Shown here one piece after another: positions 8,564 through 20,805 of a DNA stretch of 64,000 nucleotides. The notes under the pieces are model-generated. The model saw nothing but the letters and a program-made list of their open reading frames with translations, did not search any database and was not told the DNA's origin. The stretch comes from an uncultured delta proteobacterium (GTDB lineage: Bacteria > Myxococcota_A > Polyangia > Polyangiales > Houyiibacteriaceae): the NCBI GenBank assembly GCA_963699755.1, contig CAVOVB010000001.1:1440001-1504000 (forward strand), in the 5' to 3' direction. The translations under genes were made by a program, and so were the position numbers. Position 1 is the first letter of the stretch. Each line of letters opens with the position of its first letter.

Positions 8564-9391
8564 CTAGCCTGGGAACCAGGGCATCAGTCGGCTCGTCATC
8601 CGTTGGTACTGGGCATACGCCGGATATTTTCGCGCGGAAATCTTCTCGGTTAGAGCCGTGGAGCCCTGGAACAGGAGCGAAAGAACCGCGGCGCCAGCGA
8701 TGGTCCAGTTGAGCCAGCCGGCGCCCGCTGCAATCGAAAACACGTAGTAGGTCCACCAAATGGCCTGCTCGCAGAAGAAATTCGGATGCCGCGAGTACCG
8801 AAAGAGCCCCGTCGTGATGAAATTAGCCTCCGGGGTTTCGCCCCGCGCGATGGCTGCGTACTTCGCCGTCTGGAACTTCCACTGCTGCTCATCGGCCACC
8901 GACTCCCCGATGAAGAATAGGATGAAAGCAATGGCCGCGGCGTAGTCCAGTGCGTTGAGAGGCGTTCCCGCCAATCGATAAGCGGCGTACGAGGGGAGGA
9001 CGATGAACAGGAGAAGGAAATTCTGGAAGGGTGCCAGAAAGGTCGCGTTCAGGACCTGGAACCAAGCTGGTCCGATTTTCGATTGAATCTCTTTCCAGCG
9101 ATAGTCCTCGCCTCCCGGCTTGTAACCGCCCTTGCGCGCGAAGTTATAGGTGAGGCGAATACCCCAGAGCACGGTGAGGGCGGCCATCAGATTCAGCCGG
9201 GTGTCACCGAAGCCGACATAGGCTGCGAAGTGCATCGCGAAGAGTGGGGGCGTGATCGACCAGATTCGGTCGACCCAGGAGTACTCTCTAGTGATCAGGG
9301 ACAGGAGCCAGCACAGGAGCGCCAAAGCGCCCGCAGCCCAAAGTGCGGTGGTTAGCGGATCGGTCGCCTTGTAGACATCGAGCAATTGCAT
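8564..9391 (-). CDS. DUF1295 family membrane protein (steroid 5-alpha-reductase-like clan)
   Basis: SWVDRIWS, WGIRLTYNF.RKGGY...EDYRW, E..ADEQQW and GLFRYSRHPNFFCE. Confidence 0.88.
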   Translation of the reverse strand: MQLLDVYKATDPLTTALWAAGALALLCWLLSLITREYSWVDRIWSITPPLFAMHFAAYVGFGDTRLNLMAALTVLWGIRLTYNFARKGGYKPGGEDYRWKEIQSKIGPAWFQVLNATFLAPFQNFLLLFIVLPSYAAYRLAGTPLNALDYAAAIAFILFFIGESVADEQQWKFQTAKYAAIARGETPEANFITTGLFRYSRHPNFFCEQAIWWTYYVFSIAAGAGWLNWTIAGAAVLSLLFQGSTALTEKISARKYPAYAQYQRMTSRLMPWFPG

Positions 9392-9457
9392 GTTGTCTCT
9401 TTGCTCCTGGCGCCGTTGGCGTCAATTGGTCCCGCTCCGCCGCCGCCGCGCTATCGC

Positions 9458-10966
9458 TTAGACTTCGTACAGGACGTCAAGGTAGCGTTCGAGCAGGTCG
9501 GTGACGACGCCCTGGACAGGGACGGTGCTCGCCATTCCATAGACCGGCGCCATACCTTCCTCTTCATCGGGGTGAGTCCGCACATGGGTGACCGCGGCGC
9601 GCAGGTCATCGAGGAAGCGCTTCCGAACCCCCTCTTGCGTGTGTCGGAGGGTGACCGCGATGTGCACGGCCGGAGGCTTGTGCAGGCCGTTCAGGTTCCA
9701 TTGACGCTTGGTCATGAAGTCCATGATGCTGTAGATGTTGAGCTCGTCGGACGTGAAGGCGATCACCCAGAGCGGGTCGCCGAGGACGCGGAGCTCGGCG
9801 ATTTCGCGGATGCCATCTCGGATCTCTGCGCCCGTCTCTAGAATCCGGCGGCTCGCATCGAGATAGCCGCTTTCTCCCATGGACAAGATGGCTGCCCAGC
9901 AGGCCGCGCTGAGCGCACCCGGGCGGCTCCCTGCGAACGTGGGCGAAAAGTATAGGCCGCCGGGCCAATCGGCGACGGTGTAGTACTGGTAGTGGCGAAG
10001 ATCCGGGCTGCGGTAGAGCACGACGCTCGTGCCTTTCGCCGCGTAGCCGTACTTGTGTGTGTCCGCAGACATCGAGGTGACACCGGGCAGACGGAAGTCG
10101 AAAGGTGGAACCTCATAGCCGAGCTTCTGTGCAAAGGGCAGGACGAACCCGCCGAGACAAGCGTCGGTGTGGAAACCGACTCCGCGCTTGCGAGCGAGCT
10201 CCGAAAGCTCTTCGATGGGATCGATCGCGCCGTGTGGAAACGACACGGCCGACCCCACGACACAGATGGTGTTTCCAGTGATCGCCTTCTTGGTGGCAGC
10301 GACGTCTGCGCGATAGTCGGGGCCAACCGGAACTTTGACGAGCTTGAGCCCGAAGTACTGTGCCGCCTTGTCGAAGGCTGCATGCGCGCTGCTCGGAACG
10401 AGCAGCTCTGGGGACGCGATCCCCTTCGTGTCGCGCGCCCAGTCCCGGTAGCTTCGCATCGCGAGGAGGATGCTCTCGGTACCGCCACTTGCGACCGAGC
10501 CGCAGACTTTGGCGGCCGAAGCCTGCTTGGCACCGAGCATGTTGGCCGTCATCGAGACGATTTCAGCTTCATACTTCGCGATGCTCGGCCAGAGGTCGGA
10601 GTGAAGCGGATTGGTCTGAGAAGTGATCGCATAGGCCTCGTTGAGAAAGGCGATGTGCTCTGGGTCGCCGTGGTACACCGCACCGGAGACGTAGCCATCC
10701 TTCCAGCGATCCGCTTCGCGCCGGTCGAGCTCTCGCAAGGTGGCAAGGATTTCCGTGCGGGGCTTGCCCTCAGGGGGCAAGTCGGCGTGACTCTCGACTT
10801 CGCCCTCGTACGGTTTTGCGCCTTTGCGCAGCTCTTCCATGATCGGTGCGTACTCGGCATCAAGCCTTTCCCTCACGATCGGAAAACGCTTTGCAAAGCG
10901 GTAGATGCGCCCCACCAGTGGCTCGAGTGGGCCGAGCTTGATGCTCGCCAGGTCTTTGATGTTCAT
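9458..10966 (-). CDS. Sphingosine-1-phosphate lyase-like PLP-dependent enzyme (group II decarboxylase family)
   Basis: [54 protein letters not shown] (PLP Lys) and AGSRPG, the pattern typical of S1P lyases. Confidence 0.88.
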
Positions 10967-11016
10967 CGCCCCTCCGTACCGCAGCGCCGGGCGCTCCGCT
11001 AGTCTTGGTGACGGCC

Positions 11017-12588
11017 TCAGCCGTTGAGCCGCCTGTACATCGCAGCGTTGTTCTTTTGGATTTCCAGGAAGGCCTTGAACAGCTCGTCATAAATCGCTCG
11101 GTTGCCGGCATCTGGCGTGTAGCGTTTTTCGATGGGGACCCGCGATGGGATGTCCTCGACCTCGAGCTTGCCGAGGCCGACGGCAGCGACGAATGCCGCG
11201 CCCCGGACGTTGGCCGAAAGGGGATCGGCGACCTGGTCGATGGGACGGTCCAGCACATCGGCGAAGATCTGGCACCAGAGCTCCGACTTCGCGCCGCCCC
11301 CGATGAATCGAATTCCCTCGAACGGCCTGCTGATGAACGACTCGACCCCGCGCATGAGCCAGCGGGTGTTGTAGGCGACGCCTTCCATGACCGCGCGCAC
11401 CATGTGAGCCCGCGTCGTTCTCAGCGAAACGTTCGAAAACGCAGCGCGCAGGTTGTGATCGGCGACCGGCGTGTGCTCACCGTAGAGCCAGGGTGTGAAG
11501 ATCAGCTTGTCGCTGCCGGCAGGCGCCTCCGCTGCGAGCTGATTGAGACGATCAAACACATTCGCAGGGGGGCCTCCCGGGTCGAGCACGTCATCCCTGC
11601 AAAGCACGTTGTCGCGCAGCCAAGTCATGCACGCCCCGGCCGTTTCCTGCTCGTTGCCAATGAAGTACCGACCTGGCAGCGCGGATGGAAGGGAGGCCAT
11701 GTTGTGAATGAGGTCGGTCTTCTTGAATGGCACGTGGCAGGTCAGCCAAGACGAGGTTCCCACGTAGAGGTGTCCATCGAAATCGCCGACGGCGCCGGAG
11801 CCGACCGCGGCCGCGGGCACGTCCGGCGTTCCTCCGACGACCTTGGTGTTCTCCTCGAGGCCTAGCTCGCCGGCAGCCCTCGGGGTCAGGGTTCCGATCA
11901 CGTCCACGGCTCGAGTGAGGTCGGGAAGCTTCTCCCTCGGGATCGTGGTCTGCGCGAGCAGCTTGTCGTCGTACTTGATGTCGTTGATGTCACGATTGTC
12001 GGTGACCCAATGGAGCGCTATCGAGTCGACAGTCGCCAGGAATTTTCCAGTGAGCCTCAGGTTCAGATAGTCCTTTGGCTCCATGAACTTGTATGCAGCA
12101 GCGTAGATTTCCGGGCGCTCGTGTCGAAGAAATAGGATGTGTGCCACCGGCTCCTTGCCGGCGAGGCTCGGGACGCCGCCCGTCTTGCGAAGCCAGCTTT
12201 CGAGCTTCCGCGCGCCATAGCCTTGAATGCGGATCAAACCGCCGGCGACTTCGGGCACGTACTTTGCGCCGCGCGAGTCGAGCCAGATCATCGCCCTACC
12301 GAGCGCGTTCCCGGCTTGGTCCACTGGCACGGTGCCTGCCCACTGCGAGGTTACCGCCACAGCGAGGATCCGCTCTCTCGGAACCAGCTCGCGGTCGGTG
12401 ATCCGACGCGTCGCAGCCGTGATCGCGCGCCACCAATCGTCCGGATCCTGCTCGGCGCCGCCGCCGTCGCTCAGAAACAGCTCGGTGGACTCGACCTCGG
12501 CGGCCAGCACTTCGCCTTCGGTCGTGACGAGCGCCACTTTCGGGCCGCTGGTGCCGAGGTCGATCGCGAGAATGCATTCCGGTTCCAT
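11017..12588 (-). CDS. FGGY-family carbohydrate kinase (xylulokinase-like)
   Basis: [38 protein letters not shown] and [16 protein letters not shown]. Confidence 0.92.
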
Positions 12589-12740
12589 GGATGTCTCCTC
12601 CGCACGCCCTAGAAGTCGTATACCTCGTTCTCTAGACCGAAGTCTTTAGGCCCCAGTCCGGGGTTCAAGTCCAAAATTGGTTGGTCGTATGATCCGTACA
12701 CGCGACCCTGCTCCGTGCTGCCTAGCCCCTGTTCTTCGGC

Positions 12741-13409
12741 TCAGTAGGCATCCATTCCTTTGGGTATATGGCCCCGAGCATAGCTCTCGGCCGCGCGCTT
12801 CCGATCTCTGTGCATGCGGCCCCGCGCGATGTAGCTCGCCCAGCTCGGCACCCTTCGTATGCGATCGCCGCTGGCAAGCGCGACGACGTACGCTTTCGCG
12901 CATTTCTCGAAGAGCTCGGCATTGAACACGAGGCGGTTCGCCGTGGTGCCGAGGCAGATCCGCTGGTCTCCGTAGATCAGGACGTTCGCGCCGCCTTCAA
13001 GCGCACCGCACAGGCGAGTGGGGCGCCCCACAGCGATGGGCCTGCCGATCACGCCGATGTGTCGAGCTTGCTCATCGAAGAGGGTTGGGATCGTGGCTCC
13101 GATGTTCGAGAGCGCCGAGGACCATGGAGTCCTCCCGACTAGAATCGCGCCCGCATCGTGGCGAGATCGATAGATCGCTGCATGCAGGCCAGCCGCTTCG
13201 TTTCCCATCGTCTCGAAAGGAACCCATCGCTGTTCGTCGCTGCCCGTCAGCAAGAGAAGGCACGCCTGATGCCCGGGTATCCTCATCGACAGAGACCCGT
13301 CAGCCTCGCCGAAAAGCGCTTTGCTGCGGAGCCTCGCTTCATCCTTGCGTAAGAGCTCGGAAATTTCGTTCATCTCGTCTGTGCTCCTCGAGCGAGCTGG
13401 TAAGCTCAT
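12741..13409 (-). CDS. Class II aldolase/adducin-like protein, degenerate metal site
   Basis: Aldolase II-like layout (SLSMRIPG, AGLHAAIYRSRHDAGAI, NAELFEKCAKAY), but the HxH and NHG histidines are absent. ATGA overlap with the upstream paralog. Confidence 0.7.
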   Translation of the reverse strand: MSLPARSRSTDEMNEISELLRKDEARLRSKALFGEADGSLSMRIPGHQACLLLLTGSDEQRWVPFETMGNEAAGLHAAIYRSRHDAGAILVGRTPWSSALSNIGATIPTLFDEQARHIGVIGRPIAVGRPTRLCGALEGGANVLIYGDQRICLGTTANRLVFNAELFEKCAKAYVVALASGDRIRRVPSWASYIARGRMHRDRKRAAESYARGHIPKGMDAY

Positions 13410-14074
13410 TTCTGAGTCTCCTCGGTTGCTTCGCCGGACACCGACCGAAGGACATCGGCTACGAGCGCGTCCACGGAGGGGCTCAGGCGCTTCGAGCTTC
13501 GTTTGGTCCGCGCCAAGAAGAAGGCTGCGCACTCGGATTCGAGGGCGGCTAGCCTGGTCATGGCCTCGCTCGCATCACTGCCCACGCAGACCACACCATG
13601 GTTGCGCATCAAGTACGCGTGGATCTCGGGCCTCACCGCTCGCGCAACCCGCATGGCCAGCAAGCCCGTCCCAGACGGCGCGTAGCCCACACAGGGGACT
13701 GTATCCCCGAGCAGAGGTCGGTGCTCAGGACCTTCAACTCTCAGAGGCTTGGCGAGGAGTGTGTATGCGCTTGCGATCGGCTGATGCGTGTGCACGCTTG
13801 CCCCACAGTCCGGACGGGCCGCGAGAACCCTAGCGTGCAGACCCGCCTCGACCGAGGCTTCGCGATCTCCTTCGACCTGCTTCCTGTCCGAGAGACGCAT
13901 GATGCAAACCTCTGCGGCAGTCATGGCGTAGTAGTCGGTTGCCGATGGTGTGACCGCGAAGCGATCCGCGTCGATGCGCAGCGCTACATTACCCCCGGTC
14001 CCAGCCAGGTAACCCCTCTCGGCCAGGTCGATGCAGATCCTCACGACCTGCTCTCTCGTCGCCTGAAACTTCAT
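13406..14074 (-). CDS. Class II aldolase/adducin family protein (FucA/MtnB-like)
   Basis: GTGGNVA, VTPS, SVEAGLH, VHTHQP and LMRNHGVV Zn-binding motifs. Confidence 0.9.
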   Translation of the reverse strand: MKFQATREQVVRICIDLAERGYLAGTGGNVALRIDADRFAVTPSATDYYAMTAAEVCIMRLSDRKQVEGDREASVEAGLHARVLAARPDCGASVHTHQPIASAYTLLAKPLRVEGPEHRPLLGDTVPCVGYAPSGTGLLAMRVARAVRPEIHAYLMRNHGVVCVGSDASEAMTRLAALESECAAFFLARTKRSSKRLSPSVDALVADVLRSVSGEATEETQK

Positions 14075-14079
14075 CGCGG

Positions 14080-14171
14080 TCGCTCCTCGCGTCCGCGTCG
14101 CCTAAACCTGAGATGCACTTACGTTTGGCGACGCTAGGAGCGATGCTTGTGTCTTGCAAGGACGAACAAGC
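14080..14171 (-). promoter_or_regulatory. Structured 5' leader; long stem pairs with the Shine-Dalgarno of the aldolase gene
   Basis: On the minus strand, TCGCTCCT-A-GCGTCGCC-AAAC pairs with GTTT-A-GGCGACGC...AGGAGCGA just before the ATG at 14074. A second hairpin, GCTTGT...ACAAGC, lies at 14145-14171. Confidence 0.5.
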
Positions 14172-14207
14172 CTTTATAGAGGCAGGCGAGCTGGATCGCT
14201 GGATTCC

Positions 14208-15218
14208 CTAGTGAGCGGCGGCTTCCACGGCCTTGAGCAGGCTCTTGCTGTAGATACCGCGCTCGGCGAGCTCTTCTCGGGCCTTCTTCGCTGCTGCGTC
14301 CCAGGCAGCCTCGTTCGCGGAGGCGTCGACTTCCGTGATGCCGCGGCCAAGGAGGGTCTGGTAGGCGCGGGCGTCGTCGCGGCCGACGATTTGGTCGAGC
14401 TTGGAAGCCGCACGCTTGGCGGTGTCGAGCAAGGTTTGCTGATCCGCCTTGCTGAGCTCGTTGAACTTCTTCTTACTGATGATCGAGCCGCCAACGATGA
14501 TGTTGAAGTTGCTCGAGCTCATGTACTTGAGCTTCGTGTACCACTGGAACGCGACTGCAGCCATGGCGGAGGCGGGCACGACCTGCAGCTTGCCTTCCTT
14601 GAGTCCGGGGAACACGCCGGACGCGCCGATTTTCACGGGAGTCGCGCCGAGGGCCTTGATATAAGCGAGCGCTACGGCGTTATCCTCGCCGGCCCAGCCG
14701 GGCTTGCCAGCGAGGTCCGCAGGCGAGCTGAACTCAGTCGAGGAGAACACCCGGTTCTTGCCGCCGTCTCCCCAGGCGAGCAGCTTGAAGCCGCCGTCTT
14801 CGATCAACTTCTGCAGCTGCGAGTCGAGCTTCTCGCGCGCCCGGTCGAGTTGCGCGTCGGTGGTGAGAAGCCCTGGAGCCGTCAGCACCTGGAGCGCGGG
14901 GGCCACCATGCTCAAGCCCGTGGTGGCGACGCCCGCCGCGTCGAGCTTGCCCGCCTTGATCCTTGATACGAGATCTCGGTCACTGCCTTCGCTGCCACCC
15001 GAAAAGACGCGAAGCTCGACTCGGCCTTCGGTGTCTTCCTGAAGCGTTCGGCTCCAGGCCTTGAGCACTTTCACGAAAGACGAGCCGGGCGGGGCCAGCG
15101 ATGCGATCCGGATTACGGTCGCCTTGCTCGTAGGTGTCTGAGAGACCGCGGAGCGCCCAGGGACAAGCAGCGCGGCGAGCGTGAGAGCGAGGATCAGGGC
15201 AAATTTGCTATGCTGCAT
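14208..15218 (-). CDS. TRAP transporter substrate-binding protein DctP (TatP-like)
   Basis: Signal peptide, IRIASLAPPGS, TEGRVELRVFSGG, GKLDAAG and LLAWGDGG. Confidence 0.85.
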   Translation of the reverse strand: MQHSKFALILALTLAALLVPGRSAVSQTPTSKATVIRIASLAPPGSSFVKVLKAWSRTLQEDTEGRVELRVFSGGSEGSDRDLVSRIKAGKLDAAGVATTGLSMVAPALQVLTAPGLLTTDAQLDRAREKLDSQLQKLIEDGGFKLLAWGDGGKNRVFSSTEFSSPADLAGKPGWAGEDNAVALAYIKALGATPVKIGASGVFPGLKEGKLQVVPASAMAAVAFQWYTKLKYMSSSNFNIIVGGSIISKKKFNELSKADQQTLLDTAKRAASKLDQIVGRDDARAYQTLLGRGITEVDASANEAAWDAAAKKAREELAERGIYSKSLLKAVEAAAH

Positions 15219-15255
15219 ATCGACTCACCGTTGGACGGCCCCAGGCCGCAGTTGT

Positions 15256-16266
15256 TCACTTTTCGGAGGCCAGCTTGGTGACCTCGGCCAGCAGGCTCTT
15301 GCTGTACACGCGGCCCGTCAGCTGCTCCCGTGTCTCTTTGGCGACGGCGTCCCATTCGGCCTTGTGCGGGCTCAAGTCGACCACTTGGATGCCTCGTTCG
15401 ACCAGGGTCCTGTACGCCTTCTCGTCATCTCTCAGGACGATCTTGTCCATGGCGCGCGCGCCGCGCTCGGCGGTGTCGAGAAGGATCTTCTGGTCGCCTG
15501 GCGTAAGCTGATCGAAGACTTCCTTCTTGATGATCGAGCCGCCGATCAAGATGTTGAAGTTCTGCTTCGCCATGTAGTTAAGCTTGGTGTACCACTGGAT
15601 CGCGACCGCCATGATACAGGAGCTGGGCACCGTGTCGATCATCCGGGTCTGCAGGCCGCCATACACCTCGTTGGCGCCAACGCGCACGGGGTTCGCGCCG
15701 ATCACGCCCAGGAAGCCCGCGAAGACGGGGTCGTCTTTCCAGGCCCAGGGTCGGCCCGACTTGAGATCACTGGGTCGCGCGAAAGGCCTGGTCGAGAATA
15801 GACGGTTCTTGCCGCCGTCGCCCCAGGTCAGCAGCTCGAATCCGACATCCCGGAACATCCCTTCGAAGCGCTCACGAAGCTCGGTCCGGACGTGAACGAG
15901 TTGATCCATCTCGGTGATGAGCCCGGGCGCGGTCAGTACCAGGATCGGGCGCACGATCATGCCCATGCCCGTGGTGGTGATCCCCGCCGAGTCGATCTGA
16001 CCGGCGCGGATCTTCCGAATGAAGTCGCGTTCGTCGCCCTGACTGCCCCCGGTATAGAATCGGAGCTCGGCGCGACCCTCGGTTTCCTGTTTGAACGTGC
16101 GGCCCCAGGCTTTGAGGATTTTACCGAACGCCGAGCTCGAGGGGGCTAGCGATGCATACCGAATCACGATGGGTCCATCCGCCGCTGCGCTCGGGACTTT
16201 GCCGCCGGGTAAGAAGAAGCTAGCGAATGCGAGACCTGTCACCAACAAGTGCTTGCAAGTGCTCAC
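15256..16266 (-). CDS. TRAP transporter substrate-binding protein DctP (TatP-like), second paralog
   Basis: IRYASLAPSSS, FYTGGSQGDERDFIRKIRAGQID and WGDGG. Start moved to GTG 16266, with AGAGGA upstream. Confidence 0.85.
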   Translation of the reverse strand: MSTCKHLLVTGLAFASFFLPGGKVPSAAADGPIVIRYASLAPSSSAFGKILKAWGRTFKQETEGRAELRFYTGGSQGDERDFIRKIRAGQIDSAGITTTGMGMIVRPILVLTAPGLITEMDQLVHVRTELRERFEGMFRDVGFELLTWGDGGKNRLFSTRPFARPSDLKSGRPWAWKDDPVFAGFLGVIGANPVRVGANEVYGGLQTRMIDTVPSSCIMAVAIQWYTKLNYMAKQNFNILIGGSIIKKEVFDQLTPGDQKILLDTAERGARAMDKIVLRDDEKAYRTLVERGIQVVDLSPHKAEWDAVAKETREQLTGRVYSKSLLAEVTKLASEK

Positions 16267-16280
16267 CCTTGATCCTCTTA

Positions 16281-16898
16281 CTACAAGCCGAGGGCGGGAA
16301 CCAATCGCCGCCTCAGGAATTCCCGGAGCTCGGCTTCGGTCCGCTCGGGCTCGGGGGCTGCCAGGAGAGAGAGGATCAAACGGAGCATGAATTCCATGGC
16401 CTCCGTGCCATCGGGCTCGTCCCAGCCCGTGGCGTCGATGATCTCGCTCAACGCGACACGGGTGAACATGATCGACGCCGGTTGGGTGAAACCCTGCAAG
16501 AGGTAGGCATCGAACGTGGCGGGCTGCCACACCTGCCGGAGGACTGGGTTCTCCCGGATGGTGCGGAGGGTGAACACGGCGGCTTCAACGATTTTGTCGC
16601 TCGGCTCATCCAAGTCTCGAATGTGCGCCTGGATGTCATTTGCAAGGCGGAGCCCAGCCTGAAGCAGGGTCGAGCGGATGAGCTCCTCCCGGCCTTTGAA
16701 GTAACGATAGACCGTCGGGCGGCTCACTCCGGCTTCGAGCGCAACGTGCGCGATGCCGGTGCCTGGGATCCCGTTACGGGCGATGCAGCGAGCTGTGACT
16801 TCGAGCAGGCGCTCGCGGGCGGCCGCCGGCTCTGGAGGGTCTCCATCCCAGGCCTCGCGCTGCTTGGCACGAGGATCTCGATCCGCGTTTCGCGTCAT
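16281..16898 (-). CDS. TetR/AcrR family transcriptional regulator
   Basis: HTH signature IAHVALEAGVSRPTVYRYF. Confidence 0.93.
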   Translation of the reverse strand: MTRNADRDPRAKQREAWDGDPPEPAAARERLLEVTARCIARNGIPGTGIAHVALEAGVSRPTVYRYFKGREELIRSTLLQAGLRLANDIQAHIRDLDEPSDKIVEAAVFTLRTIRENPVLRQVWQPATFDAYLLQGFTQPASIMFTRVALSEIIDATGWDEPDGTEAMEFMLRLILSLLAAPEPERTEAELREFLRRRLVPALGL

Positions 16899-17329: not shown

Positions 17330-18388
17330 ATGGCTTTTCGCTCACTGTCGGTACCGGTATGTTTTCTTGTAATTCTATGGGGTTGCGGGGAGGCTTCGAG
17401 CGGGCCCCGATCTAGTGGTGGCACCGGCGGATCAGTCGGGTCTGGGGGCTCGGGCGGATCTGGAGGCACGGGCGGCACTGGGGGTACCGGCGGTGCGGTG
17501 GGTACTGGAGGCACGGGCGGCACGGGTGGTTCGGGAGGCACGGGCGGCACCGGGGGCACGGGCGGTACCGGGGGCACGGGCGGTACCGGGGGTGGGGAGG
17601 TCTGCGTCACCAGCGGGCTGTGCTTCTCCTGTCCTAGCGAAAGCGATGCGAGCTGCGACTGCAACGTAGACGAGGTTTGCGTACCGAGCGGTTGTGAGAC
17701 CTTCGGCGGAGATCCGATCATGCAATGCATGCCCGCACCAGGCGGGGCATGCATCGACAACAACGATTGTGCTGCCGAGTACGACTGCGTCGACGTTGGA
17801 TTCGGAAAGAGTCGGTGCGTCAAGCAGACCCCGGGTTGTAACAGCGGCGCTGACTGCATCCTGGGATTCTCCTGCGAGGGTGTCCCCGGCAGCTGCGTCG
17901 ATCGACGCCTGCCCTGTGACGACTACCTCGACTGTCCGAAGGGGCACGTTTGCAAGGGCCAGCCGAACTCCCAGTTCTGTCTGAGGGTGAACCAGGGCTG
18001 CGAGAGCGACGACGATTGCGCGGATCTGCCCACTCCGTGGTGCGCTGATGTCGATGGCGATGGCACCGGTGAATGCGCTGGATCTCCGTCTCCTAACGAT
18101 GTTCCTCCAGGACCCGCTTGCGTGAACTCGAGCTGCACTGGCAGCACACCGGTTTGCGAGGTAGCCGCGATATCCAGTCTGGCGACCTGCGGCCAATACG
18201 GTTTGTGTCAGGTTAGCGGCGATTGCGCTCCTGGCTTCGAGTGCGTTGGCCTCTGGCCCGACGGTCGCAAGGAGTGCGTCGAGACGGGCGGACTCTGCGC
18301 TCACGTCTCGGATTGCCCGGAGCAGCAAGTCTGCGCTTCACCACGGGCCGGGGGTCCGCCCAGCTGCCAGCGCGGTTCTGCACCCTAG
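17330..18388 (+). CDS. Cysteine-rich lipoprotein with Gly/Thr/Ser linker
   Basis: AGGAG RBS, lipobox ILWGC, (GGT)n linker and many CxxxxDCxxxxxC repeats. Confidence 0.8.
   Translation: MAFRSLSVPVCFLVILWGCGEASSGPRSSGGTGGSVGSGGSGGSGGTGGTGGTGGAVGTGGTGGTGGSGGTGGTGGTGGTGGTGGTGGGEVCVTSGLCFSCPSESDASCDCNVDEVCVPSGCETFGGDPIMQCMPAPGGACIDNNDCAAEYDCVDVGFGKSRCVKQTPGCNSGADCILGFSCEGVPGSCVDRRLPCDDYLDCPKGHVCKGQPNSQFCLRVNQGCESDDDCADLPTPWCADVDGDGTGECAGSPSPNDVPPGPACVNSSCTGSTPVCEVAAISSLATCGQYGLCQVSGDCAPGFECVGLWPDGRKECVETGGLCAHVSDCPEQQVCASPRAGGPPSCQRGSAP
17417..17596 (+). repeat. Degenerate 9-bp coding tandem repeat encoding (Gly-Gly-Thr/Ser)n
   Basis: Repeated GGCACGGGC / GGTACCGGG units. Confidence 0.85.
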
Positions 18389-18396
18389 GAGGCAAC

Positions 18397-20805
18397 ATGA
18401 AGAAATCCCCCAACGCTCCCTGGTTTCTCTTGCTAGTCGCGATGGCGCTCTCCGCATGTGAGAGCGGCGGCGGCTCCGCGGTTTCCGTTCAGCAGAAGGT
18501 GGTCACTCCGCCCGGTCCCTGCGGTGATGGCGATCCAACCTGCCAAGTGGCGATGGACTTCCCGACGCAGGGCGACCTCACCATCGACAACAGCGACAAC
18601 ATCGTCTTCTCAGCATCCGACGGGGCGATCACACTGACACCCGGCAGCAACGTGGTCATCGACACCGATGGGGACGGCGTACCGAACTGGGCCGACGACT
18701 GCCCGGGACCGGGTTGGCGCACGCCTTGCGATGGTGACCCCAGCGACGACGGCATCTACGACACGGCGTACTACAACTCCGACAGCCAAAACACTCTTGC
18801 GGCCGACGTCAGCATCTCGGGCAAGATCAACTTCGCGGATGCATACATCTTGATGGACAGCACAGGCAGCATGGGAGGCGAGCAGGCGCAGCTCGTCGCC
18901 GACCTGACCGCGAGTACCTTCGGCAGTTGCCCGGGCGCAGCCGGCACGGGCCTCATCGGTGCAATGAAGTGCTCGATCGCTGACCTCTGGATGGGCGTGG
19001 GAGAGTTCAAGGAGATTCCGCTGTCTCCGCATGCGAACCCGTATAGTCAGACTCCGTTTCACCACTACCTCGACATGACCGACAACGTTGGCGACATCCT
19101 TGAGGCCGCTGCATCGCTCGTCACCCGCTCCAACAGCGACCGGCCCGAGGCTGCCACGCAGGCCCTCTACTCGGTTGTGACGGGTAAGGGTCTTGGGCCC
19201 TACGTGCCGAACCGGGGCGCCTGCCCCTCGTCGCCCGCTGGACGCTGGGGTTACCCGTGTTTCCGGCCCGGGTCTCTACCGATCATCATTCTCTTCACCG
19301 ATGCACCCATGTGGAACGGACCCCTTCCGGCCAGCGGCGTATATGCCAACCCTCCCTTCGACGGGATCCTGGGTGCTGGCGCGCTCCTGCCGCCGGTCGA
19401 GCAGCATCCAAACATGCTCTTTGCGACCGACGCCTTCTCGGCGCACGACCTGGGCGATTTGACCAACAAGTCGGTTACCGTGATGGGAACGAACGCCAGG
19501 TTCGATGACAGTGCGACGACCTGGAATTTCGGGTCGTGCCTGCGCGGCAGCTCCGGCAATTACTACGGGGACGGGTTCGATGGGTTCGTCAAGTTCTCGC
19601 TCAGCGCTCCGACCAGCGTGTCGCTCAGCGGCCAGGGTACTCACTACCCTCTGTCGAACATGGCCCTGGCGAACTCATCTGGCACGTTTCTCGGTTGCGA
19701 CAATGGGCCGGGCGGCGGTGACCGTTGGGGTCGCCTGAACAATGTCGCCCTCGGGACTGGTGACTGGTACGCGATCAACGATTCGGCGGTGTCTCCCAGC
19801 AGTAGTGCCAACGCCAACCGTGGCCCGTTCCAAATCCGAATCCAGACCACTGCTCCCGATCCCAGTTGGCTGACGACTGACCTACCCGTGCCTTGGGCCG
19901 ATGTCCAAAACGAGCTCTTGGCAGCGGGCGTGAAGATCCTGACCGTCATTAGCCCCCGGGCGAGCGACGTGACGTTGGTGACCAACGAGGCCAACGCGCT
20001 AGCGAACCTCACCGGTTCCGTCGACCAAGCTGGCAACCCATACGTCGAGTCCATCGCTGAGGACGGAACGGGGCTTTCGACCGCGCTTCTCGATGCGATT
20101 GACTCCCTGGTCGCGAACACCCGTCGCGATCTGACCATCATCGCGGAGGACAATCCCGCGACTCCGGCCGTCGATGAGAGCCGGTTCGTCACGCTGATCG
20201 AGGCCTCGAGCTGTCCAACCGTCGGAATACCCAACTGCCTCGGCGGTCAGGGCACGGACACCTGTCTCGGCTGCTTGGCGAACGCCGGAGCCGGTTTTGA
20301 GTTTCGGATCGGAAACAACTTCATACCGCCGAGCGAGTTCCCGCAGGTCTTCGAGTTCGAGCTGGTCGCGATCGCCGACGGAACGGTGGAGCTTGAGCGG
20401 ATTCCCGTCCGAATCATGGTGCCGGGCGACGGCGCCAGCTACGGCAACGGCTTCTATGAAAACAACTACGCGGCGGAGGTCGTCTGTACGATGCCTCCCG
20501 AGCGTCCGGACTGGGGGAATCTGACCTGGATCGGCTCTACGCCGTCGGACAGCACTGTGGAGTTCGAGATCTTCACGGGGAACACCCTCGCGGAGCTGGA
20601 TGCCCAGATTCCGGTTTCGATCGTCTATCCGACCGACACGACGCTTCAAAGCTATGATCTGGGGGAGACGCTCGTCGCCAACGGCCGTCCGAACTACATG
20701 CCTTTGCTTCGCGTGAAGGCGAAGCTCAACGCCTCGAGCGATAGCTATTACACGCCTATCTTCGAAGGCTGGTCGACCCAGTTCCGCTGCATCCCGTTCG
20801 ACTAG
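18397..20805 (+). CDS. Large lipoprotein with VWA (integrin beta I-like) domain
   Basis: GGAGG RBS before ATG 18397; lipobox LSAC; thrombospondin-3-like DTDGDGVPNWADDC; MIDAS-like YILMDSTGSMGGE; DRPEAATQAL; FRPGSLPIIILFTDAP. Confidence 0.8.
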   Translation: MKKSPNAPWFLLLVAMALSACESGGGSAVSVQQKVVTPPGPCGDGDPTCQVAMDFPTQGDLTIDNSDNIVFSASDGAITLTPGSNVVIDTDGDGVPNWADDCPGPGWRTPCDGDPSDDGIYDTAYYNSDSQNTLAADVSISGKINFADAYILMDSTGSMGGEQAQLVADLTASTFGSCPGAAGTGLIGAMKCSIADLWMGVGEFKEIPLSPHANPYSQTPFHHYLDMTDNVGDILEAAASLVTRSNSDRPEAATQALYSVVTGKGLGPYVPNRGACPSSPAGRWGYPCFRPGSLPIIILFTDAPMWNGPLPASGVYANPPFDGILGAGALLPPVEQHPNMLFATDAFSAHDLGDLTNKSVTVMGTNARFDDSATTWNFGSCLRGSSGNYYGDGFDGFVKFSLSAPTSVSLSGQGTHYPLSNMALANSSGTFLGCDNGPGGGDRWGRLNNVALGTGDWYAINDSAVSPSSSANANRGPFQIRIQTTAPDPSWLTTDLPVPWADVQNELLAAGVKILTVISPRASDVTLVTNEANALANLTGSVDQAGNPYVESIAEDGTGLSTALLDAIDSLVANTRRDLTIIAEDNPATPAVDESRFVTLIEASSCPTVGIPNCLGGQGTDTCLGCLANAGAGFEFRIGNNFIPPSEFPQVFEFELVAIADGTVELERIPVRIMVPGDGASYGNGFYENNYAAEVVCTMPPERPDWGNLTWIGSTPSDSTVEFEIFTGNTLAELDAQIPVSIVYPTDTTLQSYDLGETLVANGRPNYMPLLRVKAKLNASSDSYYTPIFEGWSTQFRCIPFD

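Follow-up and report, generated by a model that had tools for sequence, protein, structure and literature searches.

An FGGY-family kinase paired with a sphingosine-1-phosphate lyase: a widespread gene unit with a probable role in sphingoid-base degradation

Introduction

Eukaryotes dispose of sphingoid bases by phosphorylating them (SPHK1/2, Lcb4/5) and then cleaving the product with a sphingosine-1-phosphate (S1P) lyase (SGPL1/Dpl1), followed by an aldehyde dehydrogenase and TECR/Tsc13. Bacterial S1P lyases have been crystallised and assayed, and in the available portions of the lyase papers no kinase is named as the source of their substrate in free-living cells (PMC3148216, PMC6148460, PMC5234717). 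Here we analyse a block of eight genes on the minus strand, running from 16898 down to 8564, in a 64,000-nucleotide stretch of DNA from an uncultured delta proteobacterium (GenBank assembly GCA_963699755.1, contig CAVOVB010000001.1, positions 1,440,001 to 1,504,000; the whole stretch is referred to as the window). At its core, a gene for an FGGY-family kinase precedes a gene for an S1P-lyase-like enzyme. The phosphorylate-then-cleave logic and the lyase family would be shared with the eukaryotic exit; the difference lies in the kinase, as the known sphingosine kinases are DAGK-family proteins whereas the candidate in the block is an FGGY protein (actin-like ATPase fold). Judging from sequence, this core is a real and widespread unit that most likely degrades sphingoid bases by phosphorylation followed by cleavage, using a kinase fold not known for this task.

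Other described systems resemble parts of the block. In the L-fucose route, FucK, which phosphorylates C1 of 2-ketoses, and FucA also combine an FGGY kinase with a class II aldolase that cleaves a ketose 1-phosphate; here, by contrast, a transaminase stands in for the isomerase, the aldolase is divided between two genes, one for a zinc-binding and one for a zinc-less protein, and a lipid is the likely substrate. The FGGY sugar kinases XylB, GntK and GlpK (PMC3245297) share fold, catalytic aspartates and ATP motifs with the block kinase, which is at most about 25% identical to solved members. The Symbiobacterium enzyme StSPL (PDB 3MAD; PMC3148216, PMC6148460) is, like the block lyase, a soluble bacterial protein; no source of its substrate is given in the available text of these papers, whereas the block lyase is fixed behind a kinase.

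Results and Discussion

The lyase

The kinase and lyase genes occupy the following positions, and a second such pair is present elsewhere in the source genome (G000; 100% complete, 9% contamination).

11017..12588, minus strand: FGGY-family kinase (domains FGGY_N and FGGY_C)
9458..10966, minus strand: predicted sphingosine-1-phosphate lyase, Symbiobacterium (StSPL) clade (best match PDB 3MAD)
G000 C1:261626-264609 (L161:6627-9610): second kinase-lyase pair, stop and start overlapping, with the kinase at C1:263050-264609 and an aldehyde dehydrogenase gene 3.5 kb downstream

The block lyase matches PDB 3MAD with an E-value of 1.5e-205 (687 bits), and ten S1P-lyase chains, at 252-687 bits, rank above the best decarboxylase (93 bits) in the PDB search. 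All 14 StSPL residues of PMC6148460 Table 3, which serve in binding of pyridoxal phosphate (PLP), in binding the phosphate of the substrate and in substrate entry, are kept:

StSPL A103, Y105, N126, H129, G168, T169, H201 correspond to lyase A96, Y98, N119, H122, G162, T163, H195
StSPL D274, C276, H310, K311, K317, S353, Y482 correspond to lyase D268, C270, H304, K305, K311, S347, Y476

The best NCBIfam match is the tyrosine decarboxylase MfnA, below its curated cut-off. We assign the PLP enzyme to the S1P-lyase family and not to the plain decarboxylases, in agreement with the original prediction of an S1P-lyase-like enzyme, for which a plain amino-acid decarboxylase had been the refuting case. 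StSPL degrades S1P in vitro to phosphoethanolamine and hexadecenal (PMC3148216). The rat-liver lyase does not turn over unphosphorylated sphinganine (PMC6148460, section 5); this need for a phosphorylated substrate implies that a kinase is needed as well. The word "kinase" does not occur in the available text of the paper that describes the Burkholderia lyases (PMC5234717). The lyase of the second pair has Thr and Gln at the phosphate site, like the Burkholderia enzyme listed in PMC6148460 Table 3.

An FGGY subfamily distinct from xylulokinase

The kinase model adopts the FGGY fold (predicted local distance difference test score, pLDDT, 95.5; best template modelling score, TM, 0.84 at 25% identity), and the catalytic residues Asp10 and Asp256 are invariant in 72 of 72 aligned sequences. 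Pfam shows FGGY domains only, with no DAGK catalytic domain. XylB is the best NCBIfam match, with 264.5 bits against a curated cut-off of 380.25, and the kinase falls below every other curated cut-off too. Xylose isomerase (TIGR02630) was not found in the complete source genome; 5 of 14 controls gave a match.

The first two specificity positions read Met-His in XylB-I and GntK and Arg-Glu in GlpK (PMC3245297), whereas the block kinase has W83-A84 there and most of its relatives Trp-Ser. Further departures from these sugar kinases are a Lys-Asp dyad, Trp281 and a 10-residue insert: position 146 is Asp or Glu in all 76 rows of the subfamily alignment, usually preceded by Lys; Trp occupies position 281 in most rows; and positions 108-142 span 33-36 residues in 73 of the 76 rows as against 25-26 in four sugar kinases, the insert including a basic amphipathic helix. 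These features suggest that in the kinase an acidic site may receive an amine, and that a further surface may accommodate a lipid tail or contact a membrane. In a tree of 80 rows, the 76 subfamily members stand apart from the four sugar kinases. At least 6,964 proteins match the kinase profile at E<=1e-150, and named relatives are annotated as xylulokinase, xylulose kinase or FGGY-family kinase. The comparison with XylB suggested in the original prediction thus separates the two, by score, by signature and by the lack of xylose isomerase, and we place the kinase in a distinct FGGY subfamily whose members are often annotated "xylulokinase". It is probably a sphingoid-base (2-amino-1,3-diol) 1-kinase.

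Linkage of kinase and lyase

Lyase loci were collected in a scan covering 43 of 64 parts, in which the best 80 of at least 568 loci were analysed; linkage was counted for loci with at least 700 bases upstream, which left out 9 loci. At all 13 close loci and at 55 of the 58 distant ones (68 of 71 together), kinase and lyase are no more than 1 kb apart, and L061, one of the three misses, holds the kinase in the same frame as the lyase. Hosts belong to the Myxococcota, Chloroflexota, Spirochaetota, Thermodesulfobacteriota, Acidobacteriota, Planctomycetota, Bacillota and KSB1. Among 151 Myxococcota genomes, every lyase match of at least 59% identity (10 in all) has the kinase no more than 2 kb away; of the 31 kinase matches, 14 adjoin a lyase. 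The second pair in the source genome is 36% and 42% identical to the block pair. Kinase and lyase distances are correlated across 43 pairs (Spearman 0.42), a value that none of 1000 permutations reached. The FGGY gene and the lyase gene are a two-gene unit conserved across phyla. Co-occurrence with FGGY genes, proposed earlier as a check, is thus borne out across at least seven phyla. The suggestion that the pathway would suit a predatory bacterium is a weak argument, since the pair is found just as often in Chloroflexota, Spirochaetota and Thermodesulfobacteriota.

No credible kinase-lyase fusion was found among the candidates, which is weak evidence: a long open reading frame (ORF) in L042 is a frameshift artefact, a single longer database match is a kinase with a spurious N-terminal extension, and in L061 both genes share one 831-residue frame that misses about 200 residues, probably through deletion.

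Other partners of the kinase

Seventeen kinases of the genome sample have no lyase beside them. Six of these directly follow a saccharopine/carboxyspermidine-dehydrogenase-like gene, four stand beside a class III aminotransferase and a class II aldolase, four abut phosphonolipid genes and three have no recognised partner. A metagenome scan yielded 17 distant kinases with 2 kb on each side, of which 4 had the lyase, 4 the dehydrogenase, 2 the aminotransferase, 1 both and 6 none. Lyase-linked kinases do not form one clade, as grouping 16 of them against 20 other rows was rejected (approximately unbiased test, p-AU 5e-8). Lyase, aminotransferase and dehydrogenase-like partner all act on an amine-bearing carbon, and this exchange of partners therefore points to the substrate of the kinase.

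In 401 Myxococcota genomes, all 7 aminotransferase orthologues have the kinase within about 4.5 kb, and at 5 of these 7 loci a neutral ceramidase belongs to the same run, in the order aldolase-aminotransferase-kinase-ceramidase (four of the five operons come from one genus and one from another family). On plasmids, the aminotransferase has only two matches, in Burkholderia ambifaria and Butyrivibrio fibrisolvens, and the same two are the best plasmid matches of the kinase; B. fibrisolvens D1 (L167) has kinase-aldolase-aminotransferase. Neighbours of the module include an FLVCR1/2-like transporter, SCP2 lipid carriers, aldehyde dehydrogenases, acyl-CoA-ligase-like proteins and a short-chain dehydrogenase/reductase (SDR) whose best PDB match, at the one locus tested, is 3-ketodihydrosphingosine reductase (KDSR).

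The dehydrogenase-like gene directly before the kinase recurs as a conserved two-gene unit (L108, L112, L142, L148, L149, L154, L168, L171, L174-L176, L184), and its product is possibly a sphingoid amine dehydrogenase. In L179-L182 (genomes G132, G142, G077 and G057), the subfamily kinase abuts a likely phosphonolipid cluster with genes for a thiamine-pyrophosphate-dependent decarboxylase, a nucleotidyltransferase, a class V aminotransferase, a cytidylyltransferase and a CDP-alcohol transferase, which possibly serves synthesis or turnover of ceramide aminoethylphosphonate. A RuBisCO-like protein travels with the kinase and the aminotransferase or dehydrogenase in six loci (L037, L044, L059, L118, L121, L152); all six score below the MtnW and OiaX cut-offs, and in four loci they stand beside a kinase-lyase pair.

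The aldolases and a lost aminotransferase

Upstream of the kinase, two aldolase-family genes flank the trace of a third gene.

13406..14074, minus strand: AldA, FucA-type class II aldolase (PF00596, E 2e-41)
13374..13409, minus strand: scar of a deleted class III aminotransferase gene (from DNA alignments with relatives)
12741..13373, minus strand: AldB, aldolase-fold protein (PF00596, E 4e-6)

With roles that we assume from those of FucA, the residues of AldA are intact: catalytic E76, zinc ligands H95, H97 and H159, and a phosphate pocket of G28-N29, T42 and S74. Glu76, the three His residues and the phosphate-binding motifs are invariant in 12 of 12 aligned copies. The best PDB matches of AldA are fuculose-1-phosphate aldolases and its best curated model is ribulose-1-phosphate aldolase (100 against a cut-off of 300 bits); the cut-off of no named aldolase is reached. 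AldB (start corrected to 13373, 210 residues; database protein P0003 is 100% identical over all 210) lacks the zinc His triad, with G-R-T and G-D-Q where AldA has H-T-H and N-H-G, and carries an invariant motif, P-x-L-F-D-E-x-A-R, that is absent from AldA. It has 466 relatives at E<=1e-20 and is likely a non-catalytic partner subunit that supplies the neighbouring wall of the AldA active site.

In relatives L003 and L081, the order AldA-aminotransferase-AldB-TetR-transporter (FLVCR-like) is found at the same site, and the order aminotransferase-AldB in the truncated locus L083; B. ambifaria has kinase-AldA-aminotransferase-AldB (49%, 69% and 40% identity). In the block the aminotransferase gene is deleted, leaving its overlapping start (ATGA) and about 33 bases, as seen in alignments with L081, L003, L085 and L001. 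The junction differs in L085 and L001, where the last aminotransferase codons are kept, so that the gene was lost at least twice. No aminotransferase orthologue was found elsewhere in the source genome, and among 55 genomes of the genus 20 have AldA and 5 the aminotransferase. The window thus shows the lyase and aldolase routes in one operon, together with repeated loss of the transaminase.

Median ratios of non-synonymous to synonymous substitution rates (dN/dS) in aminotransferase-less copies are 0.17 for AldA and 0.25 for AldB, compared with 0.06 for the kinase and 0.10 for the lyase, from pairs that are not independent and include two duplicate loci. The idea that the aldolases are decaying relics was rejected, given their intact catalytic residues and dN/dS far below 1. 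The second kinase paralogue is present in 15 of 15 aminotransferase-less AldA carriers as against 12 of 35 AldA-less genomes, a difference that kinship may explain.

D-ribo-phytosphingosine with a deaminated C2 and a phosphorylated C1 matches D-ribulose 1-phosphate, a compound that FucA-type enzymes cleave, in its C3/C4 configuration. AldA and AldB likely belong to a parallel transaminase route and remain after loss of the aminotransferase. A bacterial deamination of this kind has been described for FumI, a transaminase that converts a sphinganine-like 2-amine to the 2-ketone (PMC3136697).

Two further observations concern these genes. L244 (G198 C75) has DctP1-DctP2-AldA-AldB-DUF1295, without the aminotransferase and without the kinase-lyase pair at the site. 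The B. ambifaria cluster contains a DUF962 fragment (L166:14798-15049) after an aldehyde dehydrogenase gene; yeast Mpo1, which acts in phytosphingosine breakdown, is a DUF962 protein.

A genus-level frame

The remaining genes of the block are a regulator, two TRAP (tripartite ATP-independent periplasmic) receptors and a membrane protein.

16281..16898, minus strand: TetR-family regulator, first gene of the block, likely a repressor (PF00440)
15256..16266, minus strand: DctP1, TRAP substrate-binding protein (PF03480, NF037995; start corrected to 16266, GTG, 336 residues)
14208..15218, minus strand: DctP2, PF03480-type paralogue, 51% identical to DctP1
8564..9391, minus strand: DUF1295 membrane protein, steroid-reductase/ICMT fold superfamily (PF06966)

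DUF1295 follows the lyase in 12 of 13 close and 0 of 55 distant loci, and a DctP gene precedes the lyase in 7 of 10 close loci but in none of 51 distant ones. At L251 and L257, which lack kinase and lyase, the TetR gene is still accompanied by DctP2 and DUF1295. TetR-DctP2-DUF1295 occupies the block site without the pair in G017 and G168, and the pair is found without these three in G017 and G188. Of the 55 genus genomes, 48 carry DUF1295, among them G084, a 100% complete genome that lacks both kinase and lyase. TetR, the DctPs and DUF1295 are a genus-level frame around the kinase-lyase and aldolase modules, and the eight genes are a mosaic of three modules, not one pathway. The caution that the block may not be one pathway was therefore well placed, as by their distributions DUF1295 and the DctPs are genus-local and the aldolases come from a different route.

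DUF1295 had been proposed as a TECR/Tsc13-like enoyl reductase, a role that its absence from all distant loci and its persistence in G084 leave unsupported. It gave no match to the Steroid_dh domain (PF02544) and no PDB sequence match; its confident model has weak fold matches to SRD5A2, ICMT and delta14-sterol reductase (E 0.07-0.5), those to SRD5A/TECR-type structures having E 0.09-0.2 and TM 0.35-0.41, and clusters resembling the model partly carry PF02544.

Both DctPs have Ala at the position of the conserved carboxylate-binding Arg, in alignment with Arg-bearing paralogues of the same genome. TatP-type TRAP receptors lack this Arg (PMC5812351), and TatT of a marine myxobacterium binds palmitate (PMC11713862), which makes a lipid ligand plausible for the block DctPs. 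The proposal that they capture hydrophobic substrate stands as regards this lipid-type loss of Arg; their distribution is genus-local. The likeness to tetratricopeptide-repeat-protein-associated TRAP transporters (TPATs; Treponema Tp0956/Tp0957, Enhygromyxa TatT; PMC5812351, PMC11713862) ends there, since the block has no TRAP membrane subunits, neither TatT nor DctQM, and 13 Arg-less paralogues, among 16 DctP matches, are scattered in the source genome. That genome has 3 TatT and 3 DctM genes, and a few shared transporters may serve many TatP-like lipid receptors. The nearest TatT-DctQ-DctM set, without a DctP, lies about 47 kb away, just past the window end (G000 C1:1504170-1507329).

Proposed routes and alternatives

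The route we propose would begin with hydrolysis of ceramide, likely by the neutral ceramidases that the source genome encodes outside the block. Uptake may involve the TatP-like DctPs, which would bind the lipid and hand it over to TatT/DctQM from other parts of the genome, although the link is weak. The kinase would phosphorylate the C1 hydroxyl of free sphingoid bases, as its context and active-site changes suggest, and the lyase, from a family whose activity has been assayed in relatives, would cleave C2-C3 to give phosphoethanolamine and a fatty aldehyde, which an aldehyde dehydrogenase such as that 3.5 kb from the second pair could oxidise to a fatty acid. In the parallel route, deamination at C2 and phosphorylation at C1 would turn a 4-hydroxy base (phytosphingosine) into a long-chain analogue of ribulose 1-phosphate, whose cleavage would yield dihydroxyacetone phosphate (DHAP) and an aldehyde three carbons shorter (pentadecanal). 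The cassette for this route has the order AldA-aminotransferase-AldB-TetR-FLVCR-like transporter, its aminotransferase gene being the one deleted in the source genome.

More tentatively, and with rather less confidence than we place in the pair itself, one FGGY subfamily could be the prokaryotic sphingoid-base kinase and the hub of three exits that can replace one another: the lyase; a transaminase with a split aldolase; and an NAD-dependent amine dehydrogenase, sometimes accompanied by a RuBisCO-like enzyme that would act on a lipid ketose phosphate. As part of the same tentative proposal, two of the exits, lyase and aldolase, would share one operon in the window, the transaminase having been lost. 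If a sphingoid kinase has arisen on a sugar-kinase fold, that activity would have been invented twice; thousands of "xylulokinases" would have to be re-annotated, and the recycling of plant, fungal and bacterial sphingolipids by microbes of sediment, sludge and rumen would be explained. Searches of open-access papers returned no description of an FGGY sphingoid kinase or of a transaminase-aldolase route; the latter would be a further exit from sphingolipid metabolism. Either scavenging or turnover of the cell's own sphingolipids may be served; the best model for an oxoamine synthase of the source genome (G000 C2:525146-526447) is serine palmitoyltransferase, far below the cut-off (321.6 against 640).

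Several observations weigh against a sphingoid-base kinase that feeds the lyase. The outgroup of the kinase tree consists of four sugar kinases only, and the correlation of kinase with lyase distances partly reflects shared host ancestry. None of the three partners lies within 3 kb for 6 of 17 distant metagenome kinases and 7 of 19 genome-sample kinases. The block contains no ceramidase, and no ethanolamine ammonia-lyase was found to account for the further use of phosphoethanolamine. The source genome has four genes of the DAGK family, the known sphingosine-kinase fold; a ceramidase-like gene spread over two frames lies 1.3 kb from one of them. Of the 20 AldA carriers, 15 have no aminotransferase and yet keep AldA and AldB under purifying selection, a retention that our scheme leaves unexplained. 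Of the 151 Myxococcota genomes, 99 have lyase-like genes, and 77 of these 99 have no match to the FGGY kinase; around 40 kinase-less lyases (38-48% identity, picked from about 100 remaining matches), no subfamily kinase, DAGK or ceramidase was found nearby. These lyases are therefore not dependent on the FGGY kinase, and the tie is a property of certain lyase clades and not of lyases in general. A Pfam scan of 65 neighbours of kinase-less lyases showed no lipid or sugar kinase, and the idea that DAGKs displace the FGGY kinase beside such lyases was rejected (0 of 40 loci).

Several other explanations deserve consideration. One that we regard as unlikely keeps the chemistry and makes the natural substrate a short or soluble 2-amino-1,3-diol or amino-polyol (an amino-sugar alcohol, a serinol-like compound or a toxin backbone) instead of a lipid. 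Soluble sugars are the usual substrates of FGGY kinases and FucA-type aldolases (PMC3245297), lyase activity is reported on chains down to C7 (PMC6148460), RuBisCO-like proteins join the module in six loci, and FLVCR proteins carry choline and ethanolamine, according to PDB titles; but the ceramidase in most Myxococcota aminotransferase operons, the KDSR-like SDR, SCP2 and acyl-CoA-ligase-like neighbours, and the kinase's exchange of polar sugar contacts for an amphipathic insert all favour a lipid. It is improbable that a DAGK-family kinase makes the sphingoid phosphate while the FGGY protein acts on another intermediate, such as a 2-keto base or a base that DAGKs refuse. The DAGK near the ceramidase-like gene is possibly a sphingosine kinase, and a keto substrate in the transaminase route would fit the phosphorylation of C1 of 2-ketoses by RhaB (PMC3245297). 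Yet the FGGY kinase is tied to the lyase, which needs an amine; the DAGK in question abuts an acyltransferase gene, and its duplicate on C7 has no ceramidase alongside; and the kinase-less lyases have no DAGK beside them.

The original prediction in its full form, with all eight genes in one pathway, DUF1295 as 2-enoyl reductase and the DctPs as dedicated sphingoid receptors, appears very improbable: short gaps, shared orientation, the presence of DUF1295 behind nearly all close lyases and its weak fold likeness to steroid 5-alpha-reductases are outweighed by the lack of DUF1295 and DctP at distant loci, by the separability of frame and pair in G017, G168 and G188, and by the failure of DUF1295 to match Steroid_dh or a PDB sequence. 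An ordinary annotation as xylulokinase and amino-acid decarboxylase, neighbours by chance, agrees with the names given to many relatives and with the best NCBIfam matches, XylB and MfnA; with both scores below the curated cut-offs, no xylose isomerase, 14 of 14 lyase residues and the linkage in 68 of 71 loci, it is already largely refuted and hardly tenable. A sphingoid base as substrate of the kinase-lyase pair is thus the reading we prefer.

Architecture and genomic setting of the block

All eight block genes are intact and co-oriented, as had been noted, and their Pfam domains (TetR_N, two DctP, two Aldolase_II, FGGY_N and FGGY_C, Pyridoxal_deC, DUF1295) match the labels first given to them. 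Intergenic gaps, in reading order, are 14, 37, 133, 32, 152, 50 and 66 bases. Up to three transcription units had been suggested from the gaps; within the block, promoter-like (1 against 2.0 expected) and terminator-like matches (8 against 8.7 expected) are at chance level and lend this no support, and an operator scan gave nothing above chance. One operon with an inserted cassette is favoured because DctP2 lies about 20 bases from the kinase in the aldolase-less relatives L009, L011 and L088. GC content is flat across the block. A single RNA run contained 6% of the words, and its contigs are short pieces of relatives.

The description of the genes as inserted between housekeeping and surface-protein loci is partly apt: the same site, between rodA-nitrilase and lipoprotein genes, is used throughout the genus. 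Close relatives from the lyase scan are named Polyangiales or Myxococcota. Two segments of the source genome, G000 C1:1895000-1905000 and C7:91000-100000, are near-duplicates with genes for a DctP, a DAGK and a sulfate-permease-like protein, consistent with the 9% contamination, and may inflate paralogue counts. Beside the block, and kept there in relatives, positions 17330-20805 of the window (plus strand) hold a Cys-/Gly-rich lipoprotein-like ORF and an 860-residue ORF without a Pfam match.

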